Below are positions 6,667-48,412 of a stretch of 64,000 nucleotides of DNA, one piece after another (within the stretch, counting starts at the first letter, position 1; every line of letters starts with the position of its first letter). The notes under the pieces are model-generated. The model worked only from the letters and a program-made list of their open reading frames with translations, did no database searches and was not told the origin of the DNA. The stretch is from an uncultured Acidobacteriota bacterium (GTDB lineage Bacteria > Acidobacteriota > Vicinamibacteria > Vicinamibacterales > UBA2999): the NCBI GenBank assembly GCA_963815285.1, contig CAWFGB010000005.1, forward strand, positions 423,919 through 487,918, written 5' to 3'. Made by a program: the position numbers and the translations under genes.

Positions 6667-7590
6667 ATGCGCGCTATGAAACGAGCGCTGGTGCTTGGAG
6701 CAGTGGTCGTTGTCGGGGCCCTGTCGGTGGCCGTAGCGGCATCTCAGCAATCCACTGAGAAGCCGAAATTGATCGAGGTCGATAAGCTTCGCCCCAACCT
6801 GTTCGTGCTGCGCGGCGGCGGCGGCAACACCGGCGTGTTCATCACGACCAAGGGGGTGGTGGTGGTGGACTCCAAGAACCCCGGGTGGGGTCAGCCGATC
6901 CTCGACAAGATCAAGGAACTGACGCCGAACCCGATCACCCACCTCATCAATACCCACACGCATGGCGACCACGTCAGCGGCAACGTCGAATTCCCGACGG
7001 CCGTCGAGATCGTCGCCCAGGCCAATACCGCCGCCAACATGAAGGAGATGCGCACGGTCACCGGCTTCAAGCCAGGAGGGCCCAACATCTTCACGGAAAA
7101 CAAGGGCCGCGGGTTACCCAAGCGCACGTTCACCGACCGGCTTACCATCGGCAGCGGCGCCGATCAGGTCGATCTCCACTACTTCGGACGCGGGCATACC
7201 AACGGCGACGCCTGGATCGTCTTCCCGTCCCTCCAGGTCGCTCACGCCGGGGACATCTTCTCGGGCAAAAACCTGCCCTTGCTCGATGCCAACAACGGCG
7301 GCAGCGGGCTCGAGATCGGGGACACGCTGGCCAAAGCCGCCGCCGGCATGCCGAAGGTGGAGACCATCATCACCGGTCACAGCACCCAGATGACGATGGC
7401 GGATCTCAAGGAATATGCGCAGTTCAATCGCGACTTCGCGAACGCCGTGCGGGAAGGGAAAAAGGCCGGGCGGAGCGTCGATGAGATCGCCAAGAGTTGG
7501 ACCATTCCTTCGAGCTATGCGGGATACAGCCAGCCCCAGGCCGAAAGGCTGCGGTCGAACGTCGAGGTTGTCTACAACGAGATCAAGTAG
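6667..7590 (+). CDS. Secreted MBL-fold metallo-hydrolase
   Basis: INTHTHGDHVSGN carries the HxHxDH motif, with a later GHTNGD. The signal peptide is MKRALVLGAVVVVGALSVAVAASQQ. The true start may be the second ATG at 6676, since TATAAT at 6663-6668 overlaps the first ATG. Confidence 0.9.
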   Translation: MRAMKRALVLGAVVVVGALSVAVAASQQSTEKPKLIEVDKLRPNLFVLRGGGGNTGVFITTKGVVVVDSKNPGWGQPILDKIKELTPNPITHLINTHTHGDHVSGNVEFPTAVEIVAQANTAANMKEMRTVTGFKPGGPNIFTENKGRGLPKRTFTDRLTIGSGADQVDLHYFGRGHTNGDAWIVFPSLQVAHAGDIFSGKNLPLLDANNGGSGLEIGDTLAKAAAGMPKVETIITGHSTQMTMADLKEYAQFNRDFANAVREGKKAGRSVDEIAKSWTIPSSYAGYSQPQAERLRSNVEVVYNEIK

Positions 7591-40261: not shown

Positions 40262-40343
40262 CTTCTGGCCCAGGAATCCGGTAAACTGATCACCCGACGT
40301 GGGTGGTCGTGTCCCGCCCCGGCGACAACTAAAGGGGATAGCG

Positions 40344-41699
40344 ATGGCGCAGGAAGCGTTCCGTGGCCTGGTTCGGTGGGGAGCAGCGGCGGGTGCCGTG
40401 CTCGTGTTTCCTGTCGCAGCGGCGGCCCAGTCCTCAAGTCCAGCTCCGACGTTCACCAAGGACGTAGCCCGAATCTTCCAGGAAAAGTGTGAGTCGTGTC
40501 ACCGGCCCGACTCGATTGCGCCGATGTCTCTCGTGACCTACGAAGAGACGCGGCCTTGGGCGCGGTCGATCAAGAACCGGGTTGCCTCACGCCAGATGCC
40601 GCCGTGGCACGTCGATCGCACCCTCGGTATCCAGCATTACCAAAACGATCGTTCGCTGTCCGATGATCAGGTCGACACCATCGTCCGCTGGGTCGACGCC
40701 GGTTCGCCGAAGGGCGACCCCAAGGACATGCCGCCGCCCGTGAAGTGGGCGGACGAAAACGTCTGGAACTTTGCACCAATCTTCGGCGGACCGCCCGACC
40801 TCACCATCAAGTCCCCGGTCTACACCCAAAAGGCGATGGCGCAGGATGCATGGTTCAAGCCGGTCGTGCCGACGGGCCTCACGGAACCGCGGTGGGTGCG
40901 TGCCATCGAGATTCGCCCCGGCACCGTCAAGGGCCGCAAGATCACCCACCACGCGCTCGCTCGTCTGCAGCAGACCGAACCGGGCGAGCCCGCGGTCCGT
41001 CAGGCCGACGACCCTGGGGGTGGTCTGTTCATGGAGTGGGCGGTTGGCAAGCAGGGAGAGATCATGCGCCCGGGTTCGGGCAAGCTGATGCTCCCGGATT
41101 CCAAGATCGTGTGGGATATCCACTACTCAGCGGCCGGCGAAGACATCACCGACTACGTCGAGCTGGGCATTTACTTCTATCCCAAGGGACAGGAACCCAA
41201 GTACCGTCAGACGCTCTCCCTCTTCAGCGGCATCACTGGCGGTAACCGGGCGCTCGACATCGCTCCCAACTCCATCTACGTGGGCACCAACTTCCACGTG
41301 ATGCGCAAGGCCGGCCGCGTCGAGAACTTCCAGCCGCACATGCACCTGCGCGGCAAGGCCATGTCGCTCGAAGCCATCCTGCCCACCGGCCAGACCCAGA
41401 TGCTGTCGATGGTGAGCAACTTCAGCTTCAACTGGCACAACAATTACGTGTTCGCCGATGACGCGGCGCCGCTACTGCCCAAGGGCACCATTCTCAAGGT
41501 CACCTCCTGGCACGACAACACCGCGCAGAACCCGAACAACCCGGACCCGAATCAGTGGGTCGGCTGGGGTGATCGCACCGTCGACGAAATGGCCCATGCG
41601 TGGGTGAACGTCACCTACATGGAGGACGAGGATTTCAAGGTGGAGTTGGAGAAGCGCAAGCAGCGCACCTCTACCACCACGGACCGACAGCAGCAGTAA
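40344..41699 (+). CDS. Secreted c-type cytochrome-domain protein (one CxxCH) with a large beta-rich C-terminal domain, possibly copper-monooxygenase-like
   Basis: FTKDVARIFQEKCESCHRPDSIAPMSL carries the CxxCH heme motif and MPPWH follows. The later FQPHMHLRGKAM resembles the His/Met copper site of type II Cu monooxygenases, but this is inference. The start at MAQEAF has AAAGGGGA upstream. Confidence 0.7.
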   Translation: MAQEAFRGLVRWGAAAGAVLVFPVAAAAQSSSPAPTFTKDVARIFQEKCESCHRPDSIAPMSLVTYEETRPWARSIKNRVASRQMPPWHVDRTLGIQHYQNDRSLSDDQVDTIVRWVDAGSPKGDPKDMPPPVKWADENVWNFAPIFGGPPDLTIKSPVYTQKAMAQDAWFKPVVPTGLTEPRWVRAIEIRPGTVKGRKITHHALARLQQTEPGEPAVRQADDPGGGLFMEWAVGKQGEIMRPGSGKLMLPDSKIVWDIHYSAAGEDITDYVELGIYFYPKGQEPKYRQTLSLFSGITGGNRALDIAPNSIYVGTNFHVMRKAGRVENFQPHMHLRGKAMSLEAILPTGQTQMLSMVSNFSFNWHNNYVFADDAAPLLPKGTILKVTSWHDNTAQNPNNPDPNQWVGWGDRTVDEMAHAWVNVTYMEDEDFKVELEKRKQRTSTTTDRQQQ

Positions 41700-41744: not shown

Positions 41745-41761
41745 GTGTACGGGAGCCATTG

Positions 41762-42604
41762 ATGCATCGATCGCGTCGTCTTCTCGCTTCGTGTGCCGTT
41801 GCCCTCTTCGCGTTCGGATCCACTGCGTTCGCCCAGTTGCCGTTGCAGCCGGCCCGCGATGCCGGGCAGGGTGTCACGCCCGCCTTCGAAGGCTGGTACG
41901 AGAACGGCGACGGCTCGTTCAGCCTGCTCGTCGGCTACTTCAATCGCAATTTGAAAGAGACGCTCGACATCCCGGTCGGCCCGAACAATCGCATCGAGCC
42001 AGGCGGTCCCGATCAGGGGCAGCCCACGCACTTCTTGCCACGCCGCGGATGGGGCGTCTTCACCATCAAGGTGCCCAAGGACTTCGGCGACAAGCGCCTG
42101 ACGTGGACCATCACCGCCAACGGACAAACCAACTCGATACCGGTCGGCCTCATCAAGGGCTATCAAGTCGAGCCCTTCAAGGAGGCTGCGCAAGGAAACG
42201 AGCCGCCGCGGCTGCAGGTCGATACGAAGGGGCAGGCATTGTTCGGGCCTCCCACGGGTATCGCGGCCACGCTGAACGCCACCGTTGGCCAACCGCTCAC
42301 CATCAGCGGCATCGCCACCGACGGACAAGCCAACGATCCGGATCTGACCCCGGCCCAGTTGAAGCAGCCCCCACTGACGCTCTTCCTGAGCAAGCACCGC
42401 GGCCCCGGCGTCATCACGTTCGACAACGACCGTCCTCGCCCCGATGCCGATGGCAAGTTCGCCGCGACTGCGACCTTCGCGGCGCCGGGCGAGCACATCG
42501 TTCGGGTGCAGGCCAACGATCGATCGGGCGACGGCGGCGGCGGCTTCCAGTGCTGCTGGACCAACGTGTATGTGAAAGTGAATGTGACTGGCGGGACGAA
42601 GTAG
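41762..42604 (+). CDS. Secreted hypothetical protein
   Basis: Signal peptide MHRSRRLLASCAVALFAFGSTAFAQ, with GGGAG 6 nt before the ATG and good codon bias. The C-terminal GDGGGGFQCCWTNVYVKVNV was not recognised. Confidence 0.7.
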   Translation: MHRSRRLLASCAVALFAFGSTAFAQLPLQPARDAGQGVTPAFEGWYENGDGSFSLLVGYFNRNLKETLDIPVGPNNRIEPGGPDQGQPTHFLPRRGWGVFTIKVPKDFGDKRLTWTITANGQTNSIPVGLIKGYQVEPFKEAAQGNEPPRLQVDTKGQALFGPPTGIAATLNATVGQPLTISGIATDGQANDPDLTPAQLKQPPLTLFLSKHRGPGVITFDNDRPRPDADGKFAATATFAAPGEHIVRVQANDRSGDGGGGFQCCWTNVYVKVNVTGGTK

Positions 42605-42644
42605 GCGGGTCGGCCAGGTAGCCGGGTAGGGCTGGTTAGCCGGG

Positions 42645-42681
42645 TAGGGCTGGTTGGGGCGGGCCAGCCCAACCAGCCCTA
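42645..42681 (+). terminator. 14-bp perfect hairpin (TAGGGCTGGTTGGG / CCCAACCAGCCCTA), terminator-like without a U tract, preceded by a 17-nt direct repeat
   Basis: The arms are at 42645-42658 and 42668-42681 with a 9-nt loop. GCCGGGTAGGGCTGGTT is duplicated at 42621 and 42639. Confidence 0.6.
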
Positions 42682-42712
42682 TCAACCCACCCGCCCCTGT
42701 ACAATCCATTAG

Positions 42713-44110
42713 TTGAGCGTTCTTCTTATTTCCACGTACGATCTTGGCCGCCAGCCATTCGGGCTCGCGTCGCCAGCGGCGTGGCTGAAGCGTGCAGGAC
42801 ACCAGGTCCTCACGCGCGACCTCTCACGCGACAAGCTGCAGGAAAACGACGTCACCGGCGCCTCGCTGGTCGCTTTCTATCTGCCCATGCACACGGCGAC
42901 TCGCCTGGCTTTGCCCGTAATCGAGCACGTCCAGCAAATCAACCCTTCCGCACACATCGCGGCCTACGGGTTATACGCTCCTCTCAGCGAGCCGCTGTTG
43001 CGCGCGCACGGGGTGGGCACCGTGCTCGGTCCGGAAGCCGAGAACGACTTGGTGGAACTGGCCATGTCGCTTGGGCGCGAGGCGCCGGAGTCTGTCGAGT
43101 GGCGCGTCGCCGAATCAAGCCCCGCTCGAGCGCCACATCTTCCGCGGCTCCCGTTCATCATCCCTGAGCGCAGCGGATTACCCGGGGCGAGTCACTATGC
43201 GCGCCTGCACATGCCGGACGGTTCGCGACGGGTAGTCGGCGCCACGGATGCGACACGCGGCTGCAAGCACCGGTGCCGGCATTGCCCTATCGTTCCCATC
43301 TACGACGGTCAATTTCGTGTGGTCCCCATCGACGTCGTGCTCGCCGATATCGACCAGCAGCTTGCCGCCGGCGTGGAGCACATCACCTTTGGCGATCCCG
43401 ATTTCTTCAACGGTCCCACTCATGCGCGACGGATCGTCGAAGCCTTGCCTCAACGCCATCCGGCGCTGACCTACGACGTCACGGTCAAGGTCGAGCATCT
43501 CCTGAAGCACCGCGATCTCTTGCCGGTGCTGGCGCGCACTGGATGCCTGTTCGTCACCAGCGCCGTCGAGTCGTTCGACGACGACGTTCTCGCGAAGCTC
43601 GAGAAAGGCCATACCCGCGCGGACTTCCTGGACGCGCTGCGCCATTGTCGTGAGGCGGACATCAATCTGGTGCCGACGTTCGTGGCTTTCACTCCTTGGA
43701 CTACTCTCGCGACCTATCGCGATCTGCTCGCGACCGTCGATGCCTTAGGTTTGGTCGAACACGTCTCGCCTGTGCAGTGGGGGCTGCGCCTGCTGGTGAC
43801 TGAAGGCTCGCGGTTGCTCGAACTTGCCGACATCCGGCAGCGGGTGGCCGCGTTCGATTCTCGGACCCTGACGTACCCATGGCGCCACGACGACCCGCGC
43901 GTCGATGCGCTGCAGGCCGTCATCATGCGGGCGGTCGGCGTGCGCGCGGTTGGCTCGCGCGCGGAAGTGTTTGCCGCGGTGTGTGAGTTGGCCGGACTGA
44001 CCGATCGGGTGACGCAATCGGACGTGCCGGACCGCGCCACGATTCCCTACTTGGAGGAACCTTGGTACTGTTGAGTGGAGCCCAGTGCAGAGCAGGTGGC
44101 TCTGATTTAG
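42713..44110 (+). CDS. B12-binding-domain-like radical SAM protein, probably a selenoprotein (UGA 44072-44074 read as Sec, giving a C-U-V-E-P tail; the conventional end would be 44074)
   Basis: GCKHRCRHCPIV carries the CxxxCxxC radical SAM cluster. The N-terminal MSVLLISTYDLGRQPFGLASPAAWL resembles the B12-binding-like domain. The ORF ends ...EEPWYC-TGA-VEPSAEQVALI-TAG, with a hairpin 13 nt after the TGA. The start is TTG. Confidence 0.75.
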
Positions 44111-45381
44111 GAACCAAGCGTGTCCTCCTGCTTGCCACGACGACCGGTTACCAAACCCGCGTCTTTGGTGAGGCGGCCGAACGTCTTGGCGTCAAACTCG
44201 TCTTTGCGACGGATCGATGCGACCAGCTCGAAGACCCCTGGTGGGACGGGGCTATCCCGGTCCGTTTTCACCAGGAGGCCACGACGGTCGAAGCCATCAT
44301 CACCGAGGCGGAACGGTCACAGATCGACGGCCTGCTCGCCGTCGGTGATCGGCCAACCGTTGCCGCAGCCTATGCGGCACGATTGCTTGGACTGGCAGGC
44401 AACCCGCCCGACGCGGTCAAGGCGGCCCGCGACAAGCGCCTGACGCGCGAGCGGTTACGCGAGGCTGGCCTCCACGTTCCGACCGTGACCGTGCTGTCAC
44501 GGGTGGACGATCCAGGCACGGTTGCCCCACGACTGACGTATCCCGTCGTTCTGAAGCCCAGTGTGCTGTCGGGGAGCCGCGGCGTCATCCGCGCGGATGA
44601 TCCTCAGCAGTTCATCGCCGCGTGCACGCGATTACAGCGGCTACTGGAGGCCGGAGACGTGCGCGCGATGAAAGATCCCGCCGCCGACACCATCCTCGTC
44701 GAATCGTTCATTCCCGGCCGGGAGTTCGCGCTCGAAGGGCTGTTGGAGCAGGGGACGCTCCAAACCCTGGCGATCTTCGAGAAGCCCGATCCGCTCGACG
44801 GTCCGTATTTCGAGGAGACGATCTACATCACGCCGCCCCGCATCAGCGCCGGCGTGCCGGAGCTGATTCATCAGGCGATTGCCGAGGCGACTGCGGCCCT
44901 CGGTCTTCATCATGGCCCGATCCACGCCGAGTGCCGGGTGAACGATCACGGCGTTTTCGTTCTGGAGGTGGCCGCCCGACCGATCGGCGGCTTGTGCGCG
45001 CAGGCCCTGACATTCGCCAACAACAAGGGCGAGAACGCTGGCCTCGAGGAACTGCTCCTGCGTCACGCGCTCGGAGAATCGGCGACGCCATGGCACCTCG
45101 CCGGCGGCGCGACCGGCGTGATGATGATTCCCATTCCCGAGGGCGGTGTGTATCGGCGCGTCGAAGGTACCGAGCGCGCTCGGCAGGTCCCGCACGTCTG
45201 GGACCTCCGCATTACGGCCAAGCCAGACCAAATTCTCGTGCCGTTGCCGGAAGGCGCCAGCTATCTGGGATTTATCTTTGCGCGGGCAGAGTCGGCCGAC
45301 GTGGTCGAACGGTCACTACGGGACGCCCATGCCGCGTTGACCTTCGTGATCGACCGCGCCCTCCCGCTGGCGGGCCGCTAG
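44071..45381 (+). CDS. ATP-grasp domain ligase
   Basis: KRVLLLATTTGYQTRVF is a pre-ATP-grasp region, followed by YPVVLKPSVLSGSRGVIRADD, VESFIPGREFALEG and HAECRVNDHGVFVLEVAARPIGG. The only in-frame start candidates are TTG 44062 and TTG 44071, both inside the tail of the radical SAM gene. Confidence 0.8.
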   Translation: MSGAQCRAGGSDLGTKRVLLLATTTGYQTRVFGEAAERLGVKLVFATDRCDQLEDPWWDGAIPVRFHQEATTVEAIITEAERSQIDGLLAVGDRPTVAAAYAARLLGLAGNPPDAVKAARDKRLTRERLREAGLHVPTVTVLSRVDDPGTVAPRLTYPVVLKPSVLSGSRGVIRADDPQQFIAACTRLQRLLEAGDVRAMKDPAADTILVESFIPGREFALEGLLEQGTLQTLAIFEKPDPLDGPYFEETIYITPPRISAGVPELIHQAIAEATAALGLHHGPIHAECRVNDHGVFVLEVAARPIGGLCAQALTFANNKGENAGLEELLLRHALGESATPWHLAGGATGVMMIPIPEGGVYRRVEGTERARQVPHVWDLRITAKPDQILVPLPEGASYLGFIFARAESADVVERSLRDAHAALTFVIDRALPLAGR

Positions 45382-45710
45382 CTTTTGGATTGTTGCGGTA
45401 CGTAGCCGGGAGGGAGCGCGGCGCCTTCGCCGAAGAAGAAGTCCTCCATGTGTTTGAGGATCAACTCCTGGGCCTCTTTCTGCCACGGCATAAGGCGGTA
45501 TTCGTTGAGGATCATCTTCTGACGCTCCTCCCAGAGCTGCCAGGCCTGAGCGGAGACGTTCTCGAAAATACGCTGACCGACCTCCCCGGGCCAGGGGGCA
45601 GCGTCCAGGCCGGGAAGTTCCTGTTGGAATTTGACGCAAAACACCTTGCGCCCGCTGTGATTGCCGATCGGCTTTTCCGAAGGGCCGGTGGGACCGCCGC
45701 ACATGCTCAT
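45378..45710 (-). CDS. yggX: YggX-type Fe(2+)-trafficking/oxidative-damage protection protein
   Basis: VFCVKFQQELPGLDAAPWPGEVGQRIFENVSAQAWQLWEERQKMILNEYRL parallels the E. coli YggX core. The start is uncertain and could be the internal GTG just before FCVKF. Confidence 0.75.
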   Translation of the reverse strand: MSMCGGPTGPSEKPIGNHSGRKVFCVKFQQELPGLDAAPWPGEVGQRIFENVSAQAWQLWEERQKMILNEYRLMPWQKEAQELILKHMEDFFFGEGAALPPGYVPQQSKS

Positions 45711-45973
45711 GCCTGCATTCTACTTCCGCAGCCGAATCGAGCCGGCCGACCGCTGACGGTAAGCGGGACCCACTTCTCGCCCGTCCGATACCACGTCGTA
45801 TAGAAATGCGCCACCCACAACCTCTACTGTAGTGAAACCCTGCACGCCCTGAAAACTAGCCCTTACCGCTCAGATAGGCGTAACTCCTTTGCTCCCCGTC
45901 GTTTATGGAACAGGTTGGAAGGAAGAGGTAGCGGCACGTCCCTTGCGTTTGAGATGCGCGAAGGGAGTGCACC

Positions 45974-46234
45974 GTGAACGAAACGCGCAAAGAACGTCGA
46001 GGATTCGCATCCATGTCACCGGAAAAGCAGCGTGAGATCGCCAGCAAGGGTGGTCGCGCCGCGCACCAGAAGGGTACCGCCCACGAGTGGTCGTCCGACG
46101 AAGCCCGGGACGCTGGCCGCAAGGGCGGAATGGCGAGTCGCGGTGGCCGTGGCAAGTTGCCGACGTCTGGCAACTCGGACGCCAGCACGGTTGACACCAG
46201 CGTCGACGATTCCACGCCAGAGCCTGCAGCCTAG
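45974..46234 (+). CDS. KGG-repeat general stress protein
   Basis: GFASMSPEKQREIASKGGRAAHQKG...ARDAGRKGG contains KGG motifs. The GTG start has GAAGGGAG upstream. Confidence 0.8.
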   Translation: MNETRKERRGFASMSPEKQREIASKGGRAAHQKGTAHEWSSDEARDAGRKGGMASRGGRGKLPTSGNSDASTVDTSVDDSTPEPAA

Positions 46235-46239
46235 CGGAA

Positions 46240-46273
46240 CCCCGCCGCGTGGGATCCCCGAAGCGCGGTGGGG
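46240..46273 (+). terminator. Hairpin after the KGG gene (10-bp stem, no U tract)
   Basis: CCCCGCCGCG-14 nt-CGCGGTGGGG with one G-U pair. Confidence 0.4.
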
Positions 46274-46390
46274 GCTCCAGGTCACCCTGGGGCACACGCA
46301 CGCGGATTGAGATAGAGGCGATTGGTGTTGACGGAGGATTCGCGCTTCAGGCGCCATCTTCCATCGCTACTTACGAATCCATAGGTAACG

Positions 46391-48412
46391 CTACATCGTC
46401 ACTTTCTCAATCTGCACGCGTGCGTCGTTGAAGCAGGCGCCGCCACCCAGGTCGGTTAACGCGTCGGGCACCAACGTATTCGACGTGAATCCGTTGGCGA
46501 TGTGACGCCGCCAGACCCCTTTCGGCATTGAGACCGTGCCCTGCTTCACGAGCGGGGTGACACGCACGGGCAGCCGTACTTCGCCCAGCCCGTTGAACAT
46601 CCTCACAACCTCGTTGTTCTGAATATCGCGTGCCGCGGCATCCTCTGGGTGGACGTCGAGGACCACGGTGGGTCGCGGCAGCTCCCCGAGCGTCGAACTC
46701 ACGGTCCGTTCGCTGGCTGGTGAAATCAGCGCGAGGGGGTACTGATCCGTTCCGGGATCGGGCTGAAATCCATACAGACCGAGCGGCGCTTGGCGATCTA
46801 ATTCCGCCGGAAAGAGGTGGACCTTCTGATCTGGCGTCTGCGGCATCACATCCACGAACTGCACCGGCCGGCCATCGAAGGGCGCCGTGGCTTTCGTGTG
46901 CTGCCGGATTTCGTCGCCGTGCGGCTCAGGGAGTCGTCCAAGCACGTCGAGCATCATCTCGACATCGCCGCTCGGGTCGCCCTCGCGTTCGAGGTCCAAC
47001 CGCCGAATCAACTCGGCAAACAGTTCAACGTTGGGCCGTGATTCTGCCACCTGCTCGATCACGGGACGCGCCAGCTGCATGGTGATTGGCCCGTACGACT
47101 TGACGAGATCGTAGTGTTCCAGAAAGGTGGTCGCCGGAAGCACGACGTCCGCATACAGGGCGGTATCGGTCAACACCTGATCGTGGACGACGGTGAAAAG
47201 GTCGTCTCGTTCCAGTCCCTTGAGCACACGCCCCTGATCGGGCATCGTGACCGCAGGATTGCAGTTGTACACGAACAGCAGTTTGACCGGCGCCGCATCG
47301 TCGAGCAGCGCGCGCCCGAGATGGTTCATGTTGATGGCGCGAGTGTTGGCTTCAGGGTCGCGAATCCACGATCGAGTGATGTTCCACGAGGCGGAGTTGC
47401 TCATCGAATAACCGCCGCCCCGGACGCCGAACTTGCCGGCGACAGCGGGCAGCGCGAGCACAGCGGCCGCGGCGCTGCCGCCATTGCGGTTGCGCTCGAG
47501 GCCCCAGCCGCACTTGACCAGCGCAGGCGAGGTCGTGGCGTACATCTCCGCGAAACGCTCCAGCTGCTCGACCGGAACCGCGCTTTCTTGCGCGGCGCGT
47601 TCGAACGTCCACGGCGCGGCCTTGTCGCGGAGCTGCTCGGCACCGGTCGTGTGATCCTTCAGAAACGCTTCGTCTGCACGCCCTGTCTCGAAGAGGTGAT
47701 GGTGGACGGCGAGCGCCACGGCCAGGTCTGTACCCGGACGAATTTGAAGGAACAGATCCGCCTGCCTGGCGATGGCGGTCGCGCGCGGATCGATGACGAT
47801 CACCTTGGTACCCCGTTCCCGAGCCTGCTTCAGGAACGGCATGATGTGGATACCCGAATGCCCGGGATTGACACCCCAGACGACGATCAGTCTGGCCTCG
47901 GGATAATCCTGGTAGCTGACCGACGCCATCTTCCCGTAGAGACCCTGATTGGCGGCACCGGTCGGTGCGGCACACACCGTACGCAGCAGCCGCGATGCCC
48001 CGAGACGTCGAAAGAACGTCGCATCGGTCGTGTCCTGCGTCAGCAGGCCATTCGATCCGCCGTAGGAGACCGGAAGAATTGCCTCAGCCCCGAATGCGGC
48101 GCTGATGTCGCGCATCCTCGCGGCCACGAGTTCCAGCGCTTCGTCCCAGCTGACGCGGTGGAAGCGCCCGGTCCCCTTCGGGCCAGTGCGCACGGCCGGG
48201 TGCAGGATGCGGTCATCACCGTACACGCGTTGATCGAAATGCCTGACCTTGGCGCAGATGTAACCGTTGGTGATCTCGTTCTTCGGCGACCCGTCGATGC
48301 GATGGACGCGGCCGCCGCGCAGCGTCACGACCAGCGTGCAGGCATCTGGGCAGTCGAGCGGACAGGCGGTCTCGACGTGGGATTCAGGAGGCGCAGGAGC
48401 TGGGCGCGGCAT
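46391..48412 (-). CDS. Molybdopterin (bis-MGD) oxidoreductase, catalytic subunit
   Basis: The N-terminal TACPLDCPDACTLVV carries the Cys cluster of the 4Fe-4S Mo/W domain. 673 aa with a C-terminal molybdopterin dinucleotide-binding region. Confidence 0.9.
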   Translation of the reverse strand: MPRPAPAPPESHVETACPLDCPDACTLVVTLRGGRVHRIDGSPKNEITNGYICAKVRHFDQRVYGDDRILHPAVRTGPKGTGRFHRVSWDEALELVAARMRDISAAFGAEAILPVSYGGSNGLLTQDTTDATFFRRLGASRLLRTVCAAPTGAANQGLYGKMASVSYQDYPEARLIVVWGVNPGHSGIHIMPFLKQARERGTKVIVIDPRATAIARQADLFLQIRPGTDLAVALAVHHHLFETGRADEAFLKDHTTGAEQLRDKAAPWTFERAAQESAVPVEQLERFAEMYATTSPALVKCGWGLERNRNGGSAAAAVLALPAVAGKFGVRGGGYSMSNSASWNITRSWIRDPEANTRAINMNHLGRALLDDAAPVKLLFVYNCNPAVTMPDQGRVLKGLERDDLFTVVHDQVLTDTALYADVVLPATTFLEHYDLVKSYGPITMQLARPVIEQVAESRPNVELFAELIRRLDLEREGDPSGDVEMMLDVLGRLPEPHGDEIRQHTKATAPFDGRPVQFVDVMPQTPDQKVHLFPAELDRQAPLGLYGFQPDPGTDQYPLALISPASERTVSSTLGELPRPTVVLDVHPEDAAARDIQNNEVVRMFNGLGEVRLPVRVTPLVKQGTVSMPKGVWRRHIANGFTSNTLVPDALTDLGGGACFNDARVQIEKVTM

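Follow-up and report, generated by a model that had tools for sequence, protein, structure and literature searches.

A predicted radical SAM selenoprotein and an amino-acid-ligase-type ATP-grasp enzyme as a conserved gene pair in an uncultured acidobacterium and its relatives

The closest characterised relative of the enzyme described here is ArsL, a radical S-adenosylmethionine (SAM) enzyme of arsinothricin biosynthesis (arsQML) that ends in an RCCLKC tail. ArsL transfers SAM's 3-amino-3-carboxypropyl moiety (ACP) and uses its Cys-rich tail to bind the acceptor (10.1101/2024.02.01.577332); it forms an Fe-C(gamma) organometallic species, on which attack by a nucleophile has been proposed (10.64898/2026.04.29.721666). 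The family nearest to ArsL, NF040546, is much larger, with hundreds of representative clusters from soil and marine bacteria. In a 2022 preprint, Haft described this family as uncharacterised, drew attention to its rare CU motif and remarked that CU motifs accompany metal-carbon chemistry (10.1101/2022.07.06.499078). Here, we analyse a member of NF040546 encoded in a window of 64,000 nt from the genome of an uncultured acidobacterium (Vicinamibacterales, UBA2999; contig CAWFGB010000005.1), in which its gene overlaps that of an ATP-grasp ligase. Comparison with related genomes indicates that the radical SAM protein is a selenoprotein and that the two genes belong together.

The radical SAM gene occupies 42713-44110 on the forward strand and starts at TTG 42713, immediately after an in-frame TAG (42710-42712). 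As called, its open reading frame (ORF) comprises 453 codons (42713-44074) and ends in EEPWYC-TGA. Because the frame continues past this UGA, adding U-V-E-P-S-A-E-Q-V-A-L-I before a TAG at 44108-44110, the end of the gene is placed at 44110 instead of 44074, giving a protein of 465 residues; the lesson for annotation is that this gene is routinely called 12 codons short. In an NCBIfam profile search the truncated ORF scored 582.2 bits against NF040546 (curated cut-off, 500 bits). With the UGA read through, a six-frame search of the genome gave 592.9 bits, the match reaching position 467 of the 468 in the profile. The second-best family was that of ArsL (NF040542), at 269.7 bits across residues 3-401, under its curated cut-off of 450 bits. 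The CX3CX2C cluster motif is found at C184, C188 and C191, all three invariant in the alignment of homologues, and the radical SAM core (PF04055) is matched with E = 1.7e-15. With other members of NF040546 the protein shares, besides this motif and a score above the cut-off, the PW[YF]C-[U/C]-x-E-P tail, here PWYC-U-VEP, in which V replaces the A of the C-[U/C]-A-E-P that follows PW[YF]. It differs from its homologues in having CUVEP instead of CUAEP and in its TTG start directly after a stop codon. Judged by its sequence, it is an ordinary member of a catalogued family. A search among 1.84 billion representative proteins returned 552 clusters at E <= 1e-30, and the C-termini of distant full-length members read ...W[FY]CCAEP... 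or break off at ...WFC where UGA comes next. Four tandem head-to-tail radical SAM paralogues with open frames of 460-600 codons, which match NF040546 weakly (40-60 bits), lie elsewhere in the same genome (C8:629469-634466), on a contig other than that of the cassette.

The UGA at 44072-44074 (residue 454) aligns with a Cys codon, TGC or TGT, in 24 homologues; the other 102 of the 126 homologous tails from the retrieved loci have TGA at this position. Sixteen nt past its first base begins a hairpin with a 6-bp stem, CAGAGC-AGGUG-GCUCUG (44088-44104, forward strand), which codes for the tail residues E-Q-V-A-L, sits within the 5' end of the ligase ORF and has the position of a selenocysteine insertion sequence (SECIS). 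Considered for fold stability alone, the hairpin is no better than shuffled sequence (z = -0.16, not significant). Across 61 distinct homologous sequences, pairing is found in 96.2% of cells, and double-change cells in the stem number 36, versus 11.2 +/- 2.3 after shuffling, with none of 500 shuffles reaching 36. Compensatory changes affect three of the six stem pairs, and in a control with the partner columns slid, pairing falls to 39-50%. Codon constraint could supply part of this covariation signal, the hairpin being in coding sequence. Exactly 11 residues follow U in 85 of 92 distinct selenocysteine (Sec) forms, fitting the pattern AEPxxEQ[VL]AL[VLI]. In many Cys forms the tail is 7 residues long (AEPMExx) and the hairpin segment is missing, which argues that the segment exists for recoding. 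In addition, tRNA-Sec, SelA, SelB and SelD are all encoded in the genome, which is 98% complete. Because a covarying SECIS hairpin follows and the genome encodes this machinery, the UGA is read as Sec, and on such comparative grounds we regard the radical SAM protein as a genuine selenoprotein. A -1 frameshift fusion at the UGA was dropped, since no slippery sequence is present (UAC UGU UGA), and an Rfam scan of 42000-46500 found no family. The SelD gene (C8:399224-400144) has an in-frame TGA of its own, and SelD is probably itself a selenoprotein.

The second gene, a 439-codon ORF opening at TTG 44062 (44062-45381, forward strand), matches ATP-grasp_4 (PF13535, 116.5 bits), LAL_C2 (PF18603, 53.5 bits) and ATPgrasp_N (PF18130, 29.9 bits) above the Pfam gathering scores; no NCBIfam model reaches its cut-off on it. 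Its best solved structure is 3VOT (BL00235), with E = 2.6e-36 over residues 17-406 and hence nearly full length. These matches point to an ATP-grasp enzyme of the L-amino acid ligase type, with the three-domain architecture, LAL_C2 included, that is common to BL00235, BacD, DdaF, TabS and RizA, and with the Met-specific BL00235 as closest match. L-amino acid ligases typically cap an unusual amino acid as a dipeptide, as in bacilysin, dapdiamide and tabtoxin; the gene in the window is found among housekeeping genes and not in an antibiotic cluster. The reported products of BL00235 are Met-Gly and Met-Met (PMC6920838). An earlier, sequence-only reading of the locus had called the two genes a (seleno)protein with a putative SECIS and an ATP-grasp ligase. 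Both assignments stand, the former on the covarying hairpin and the full Sec machinery of the genome, the latter on the Pfam domains and the match to 3VOT. In-frame TGA and TAG flags in ATP-grasp homologues had raised the possibility of a second selenoprotein, which was rejected: the sole stop seen in six loci checked was the terminal stop of one of them, which fell within the last part of the alignment.

The distribution of the two genes was examined in a sample of 401 genomes of the phylum, counting ligase homologues at E <= 1e-40. The radical SAM family occurs in 71 genomes (60 with an in-frame TGA) and the ligase in 82; both are found in 68, the radical SAM gene only in 3, the ligase only in 14 and neither in 316, counts that are inflated by shared ancestry, as relatives are not independent. 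In 34 of the 68 genomes with both, the pair lies within 300 nt, in three arrangements: radical SAM gene before ligase (30), ligase before radical SAM gene (2) and convergent (2). In the remainder the genes are within 5 kb (6 genomes), far apart on one contig (7) or on different contigs (21). Among distant members, with radical SAM identities of 31-39% and a GC content of 29-70%, the ligase is adjacent in four of seven with recoverable context. It lies upstream in L176 (GC 70%, identity 39%) and is convergent in L177 (GC 29%, identity 32%), while in L178 (GC 44%, identity 31%) and L180-182 (GC 68%, identity 37%) a NifU gene is followed by the ligase and then the radical SAM gene, with a 4-nt overlap of the last two in L180-182. 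Of the other three, two are on contigs of 2-3 kb without a ligase and one is a fusion of the radical SAM protein to MerB.

Genome-by-genome co-occurrence, the several gene orders and the renewed adjacency in distant lineages with a NifU-type gene argue that the pairing is conserved, and on this comparative evidence we regard the radical SAM enzyme and the ligase as a two-enzyme system kept across deep divergence and changes of gene order. The sequence-only reading had left open whether the pairing was conserved; co-occurrence and gene-neighbourhood analysis of both homologue sets answers in the affirmative. The whole neighbourhood is syntenic within the order of the window genome (LigD_N, transporter, radical SAM gene, ligase, yggX, molybdopterin oxidoreductase), and the two genes are unlinked in at least 7 genomes besides the 21 with different contigs, as might be expected of inherited synteny between enzymes of unrelated processes. 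That explanation is hardly probable at all, as adjacency outlasts three orientations and a NifU gene placed between the two, recurs in genomes of 29%, 44%, 68% and 70% GC at 31-39% identity, and is accompanied by a strongly matched pattern of presence and absence. Full-text literature searches found no paper on conserved ligase and NifU partners of this family. An apparent natural fusion of radical SAM protein and ligase in one genome (G375) was discarded, the genes being in different frames with a stop between them. Metagenome-assembled genomes labelled Acidimicrobiia or Bifidobacteriaceae, whose ligases are 57-60% identical, were not used as evidence from other phyla, since no kinship is reported for them.

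As to function, we tentatively propose that the pair is a two-enzyme module of amino-acid small-molecule metabolism, joined in most other lineages by a third component, an Fe-S carrier of the NifU/Nfu type. The radical SAM enzyme, like ArsL, would cleave SAM at the C-gamma-S bond, and the ACP group would pass to a soft nucleophile, either bound by the flexible Cys-Sec pair at the C-terminus or identical with that pair, to yield a methionine-like amino acid. The ATP-grasp enzyme would activate the carboxylate of this amino acid and join it to a second amine, resulting in a dipeptide-type product. We infer ACP delivery from the homology to ArsL, which extends over about 400 residues including the canonical radical SAM motif, and from the equivalent position of the flexible tail: both enzymes have a short soft-ligand C-terminus, which in ArsL has three Cys and binds As(III), versus Cys-Sec in the window enzyme. 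The partners differ, ArsL being accompanied by the methyltransferase ArsM and the window enzyme by an amino-acid ligase, with no arsenic genes seen nearby. A further likeness is to diphthamide synthesis, where the Fe-S enzyme Dph2 provides ACP from SAM and ATP-dependent amide formation follows; Dph2, however, has a different fold, a protein target and no sequence relationship to the window enzyme.

The MerB fusion bears on the acceptor. This protein (P0128, on an 8.3-kb contig of JGI metagenome 3300047160) is a radical SAM protein with a CCAEP tail and a C-terminal MerB domain (alkylmercury lyase, acting on C-Hg; PF03243, 54.7 bits). A second MerB gene, this one free-standing, follows 4 kb downstream, and the contig carries no ATP-grasp gene. 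Together with the remark of Haft on CU motifs, the fusion would fit a soft metal(loid) or chalcogen acceptor. Identifying acceptor and product would define new selenium-dependent chemistry, in a family that has a rare Cys-Sec tail and a fixed association with an amino-acid ligase and an Fe-S carrier. The metabolite, possibly new and widespread, might be a methionine analogue, a metal-binding compound or a low-molecular-weight thiol or selenol, and a system of two genes is directly testable by co-expression.

The canonical CX3CX2C motif and PF04055 core would equally suit an enzyme that uses a 5'-deoxyadenosyl radical, in which case the order of steps could be reversed, with the ATP-grasp enzyme first making a dipeptide or amide that the radical SAM enzyme then modifies. 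In that scheme the Cys-Sec tail would serve as an arm for redox chemistry or hydrogen-atom donation, comparable to the C-terminal Cys-Sec of thioredoxin reductase. We consider such an order unlikely, and the same low probability is attached to this role of the tail. ArsL has the same motif yet cleaves SAM to an ACP species, and methionine (ACP-S-CH3) is the N-terminal substrate accepted by the ligase's best structural relative. Consistent with the reversed order are the distant lineages in which the ligase gene precedes the radical SAM gene with a 4-nt overlap and the 14 genomes that have the ligase without the radical SAM gene, as expected if the latter enzyme were an optional tailoring step.

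All-against-all clustering of neighbours at 101 loci, which covered ORFs from 80-90 aa upwards, revealed only two recurrent extra neighbours outside the synteny of the window's own order, namely NifU and yggX. A NifU-type protein (Nfu_N and NifU domains) is encoded beside the cassette in 15 of 21 diverse loci. In the phylum sample, 45 genomes from outside the window's order encode a NifU-type protein together with the radical SAM enzyme, the ligase or both; in 38 of these it maps no more than 1.6 kb from one or both genes, adjoining the ligase only in 22, the radical SAM gene only in 11 and both in 5. It is also found beside the ligase in 8 of the 14 genomes that have the ligase alone. The window genome has no gene with a NifU domain (PF01106), and the sampled genomes of its order likewise yielded no Nfu-type protein at E <= 1e-25. 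Here yggX, encoding an Fe(2+)-trafficking or oxidative-damage protection protein of 110 codons (45378-45710, reverse strand), is convergent with the ligase, as in 63 of 80 related loci, and where the radical SAM gene has been relocated, in two genomes examined (G279 and G367), yggX has remained with the ligase. Since YggX is widespread (166 of 401 genomes) and also occurs in genomes without the cassette, this adjacency is suggestive, not diagnostic. In the proposed module, NifU elsewhere, and possibly YggX here, would serve the [4Fe-4S] cluster.

The presence of NifU-type carriers or YggX beside the genes in most lineages could also be taken to mean that ACP is transferred onto a side chain of a target protein, such as the Fe-S carrier, a translation factor or the enzyme's own Sec, and that an ATP-dependent ligation follows. 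Dph2 is a precedent for ACP transfer to a protein, with the amidation of diphthamide as a parallel, and the cassette is single-copy and located among housekeeping genes instead of in a biosynthetic island. Protein modification is nevertheless distinctly unlikely, as the ligase has LAL_C2 and over its full length resembles ligases of free amino acids, not those of the RimK or TTL type. Moreover, between 3 and >30 residues follow C-[U/C]-A-E-P, so that the protein's own C-terminus offers no conserved ligation site, and the window genome retains the pair without a NifU gene.

The junction of the two genes in the window is unusual. In the ligase frame, from the upstream in-frame stop to the conserved KRVLLLATTTGY, the only ATG, GTG or TTG codons are TTG 44062 and TTG 44071, with the near-cognate CTG 44068 as sole further candidate; the codon scan thus agrees with the sequence-only reading that no ATG or GTG precedes the ligase N-terminus in frame. 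Both TTG codons lie inside the selenoprotein 3' end, 46 and 37 nt 5' of the radical SAM stop, respectively, and TTG 44071 overlaps UGA 44072-44074 as UUGA, being composed of the last base of the Cys TGT and the TG of TGA. The conserved ligase protein begins with T/K at 44113-44118, and the codon aligned with the Met of homologues is ACC 44113. A Shine-Dalgarno-like GGAGGA (44053-44058, forward strand), within the radical SAM codons for L-E-E, is spaced 3-4 nt from TTG 44062 and 12-13 nt from TTG 44071. Among 105 distinct homologous junctions a full GGAGG at this site is limited to the window and its nearest relative, because L-E-E is encoded here versus L-[NDTS]-E elsewhere. GTG 44120, with AGGA 8 nt upstream, was rejected as a start, as it is out of frame and opens an ORF of only 107 codons.

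Of 90 loci with the radical SAM gene before the ligase, 83 have an ordinary ligase start at the conserved M-[KP]-R-V-L-L (ATG 49, GTG 24, TTG 10) and 4 use a start slightly farther upstream that coincides with the stop or follows it; the window is among the three exceptions. Fifteen of the 83 starts share 4 nt with the true stop of the radical SAM gene (ATGA, GTGA or TTGA), a layout that is classical for translational coupling. The nearest relative, L086, whose radical SAM protein is 96% identical, has a sequence identical to that of the window up to TTTAGG, after which it carries 84 nt of short repeats (7400-7483; GGCTGATAGT(G)TTCCATCTG twice and GTAATCTGT twice) where the window has AACC (44112-44115). 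In L086 both TTG codons are out of the ligase frame, an in-frame stop lies ahead of the ligase, CTG (7481) occupies the Met position, and gene calling shortened the ligase to 332 residues. In L083, a genome of the same genus, the repeat spacer measures ~89 nt and the ATG is normal. Other short tandem arrays, such as GGCGGGTAGG, GTGGAAAAA and GGGCATAGGGCA, immediately follow the radical SAM stop in many related loci. The ligase is under purifying selection between the window genome and L086, with a dN/dS of 0.18 overall and 0.07 in the first 110 codons, the latter value from six differences only.

The simplest history looks like one in which the spacer is ancestral and the window lost about 80 nt, including the start position. 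Such a deletion would have fused the ligase ORF to TTG codons inside the selenoprotein 3' end, so that the ligase would begin at TTG 44062 or 44071, behind a pre-existing GGAGGA and just 5' of the SECIS. The overlap of the ligase with UGA and SECIS is therefore real but lineage-specific, and looks like the outcome of a recent deletion, since 83 of 90 loci start ordinarily and L086 has the 84-nt spacer with its TTG codons out of frame. These same facts speak against the earlier proposal that ligase initiation is coupled to Sec decoding, at least as a designed feature. What is new in the window is thus a genome without NifU that has yggX beside the ligase instead, and a derived, overlapping TTG start; with the ordinary start missing, the ligase of this lineage is called ~110 codons short, as the 332 aa of the close relative illustrate. 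CTG is aligned with the usual ligase Met in two unrelated loci, L086 and L154, in the latter as a CTGA overlap, which hints at CUG initiation in these bacteria.

A regulatory use of the UUGA is very improbable. With selenium or SelB in short supply, ribosomes that terminate at UGA would re-initiate on UUG, while a SelB-bound SECIS would block fresh initiation and, just as improbably, Sec-inserting ribosomes would run on to TAG 44108, where there is no start. If true, the overlap would be a selenium-responsive translational switch setting the ratio of the two enzymes.

Several observations, besides the inflation of the co-occurrence counts by ancestry, weigh against the proposed small-molecule module. 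ACP transfer by the NF040546 family is deduced from likeness to ArsL and not from experiment or a metabolite; the similarity is below the cut-off (270 versus 450 bits), the RCCLKC tail is absent (the window tail reads WYCUVEPSAEQVALI), and the neighbourhood gives no clue to arsenic or another acceptor. The 14 genomes with the ligase alone, 8 of them at least 92% complete and 4 from one family, indicate that the ligase is not strictly dependent on the radical SAM enzyme, and conversely the radical SAM gene occurs alone in 3 genomes and the MerB-fused member has no ligase within 8 kb. Finally, TTG starts with spacers of 3-4 or 12-13 nt are weak, and the ligase may have a near-cognate start or have recently lost expression, L086 being without any canonical start.

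Outside the two coding regions, the sequence-only reading had listed a hairpin, a promoter-like hexamer and a shared stop, and had seen no precursor, transporter or regulator; all of these recur in our analysis, the last through neighbour clustering. The hairpin, a perfect 14-bp inverted repeat (TAGGGCTGGTTGGG / CCCAACCAGCCCTA; 42645-42681), lies inside a short tandem-repeat array, has no T-run and may be an insulator or terminator of the preceding gene. The -10-like hexamer TACAAT (42700-42705, forward strand) lies 7 nt before TTG 42713; a consensus scan detected no matching -35 and no complete sigma-70-type promoter. As TTG 42713 also lacks a Shine-Dalgarno sequence, the radical SAM transcript may be leaderless. 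Across the 101 loci, clustering found no conserved precursor, transporter or regulator tied to the pair beyond lineage synteny, and among ORFs of the size clustered no conserved small precursor emerged, which suggests that the unit is not a cluster for a ribosomally synthesized and post-translationally modified peptide. The extra neighbours that it brought up were a citrate synthase, an ATP-binding cassette (ABC) ATPase, a protease and a POT-family permease. At the convergent ligase/yggX junction, CTAG (45378-45381) is common to the ligase stop TAG (45379-45381) and the reverse-strand yggX stop (45378-45380), within a terminator-like hairpin followed by TTTTGG (45366-45382, forward strand). 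In 45 of 80 related loci the gene for a di/tripeptide permease of the POT/PTR2 type is found upstream of the radical SAM gene, divergent in the locus inspected; at this position the window encodes a secreted protein resembling mono-haem cytochrome c (40299-41699) and a secreted protein of 281 aa without a Pfam match (41759-42604).

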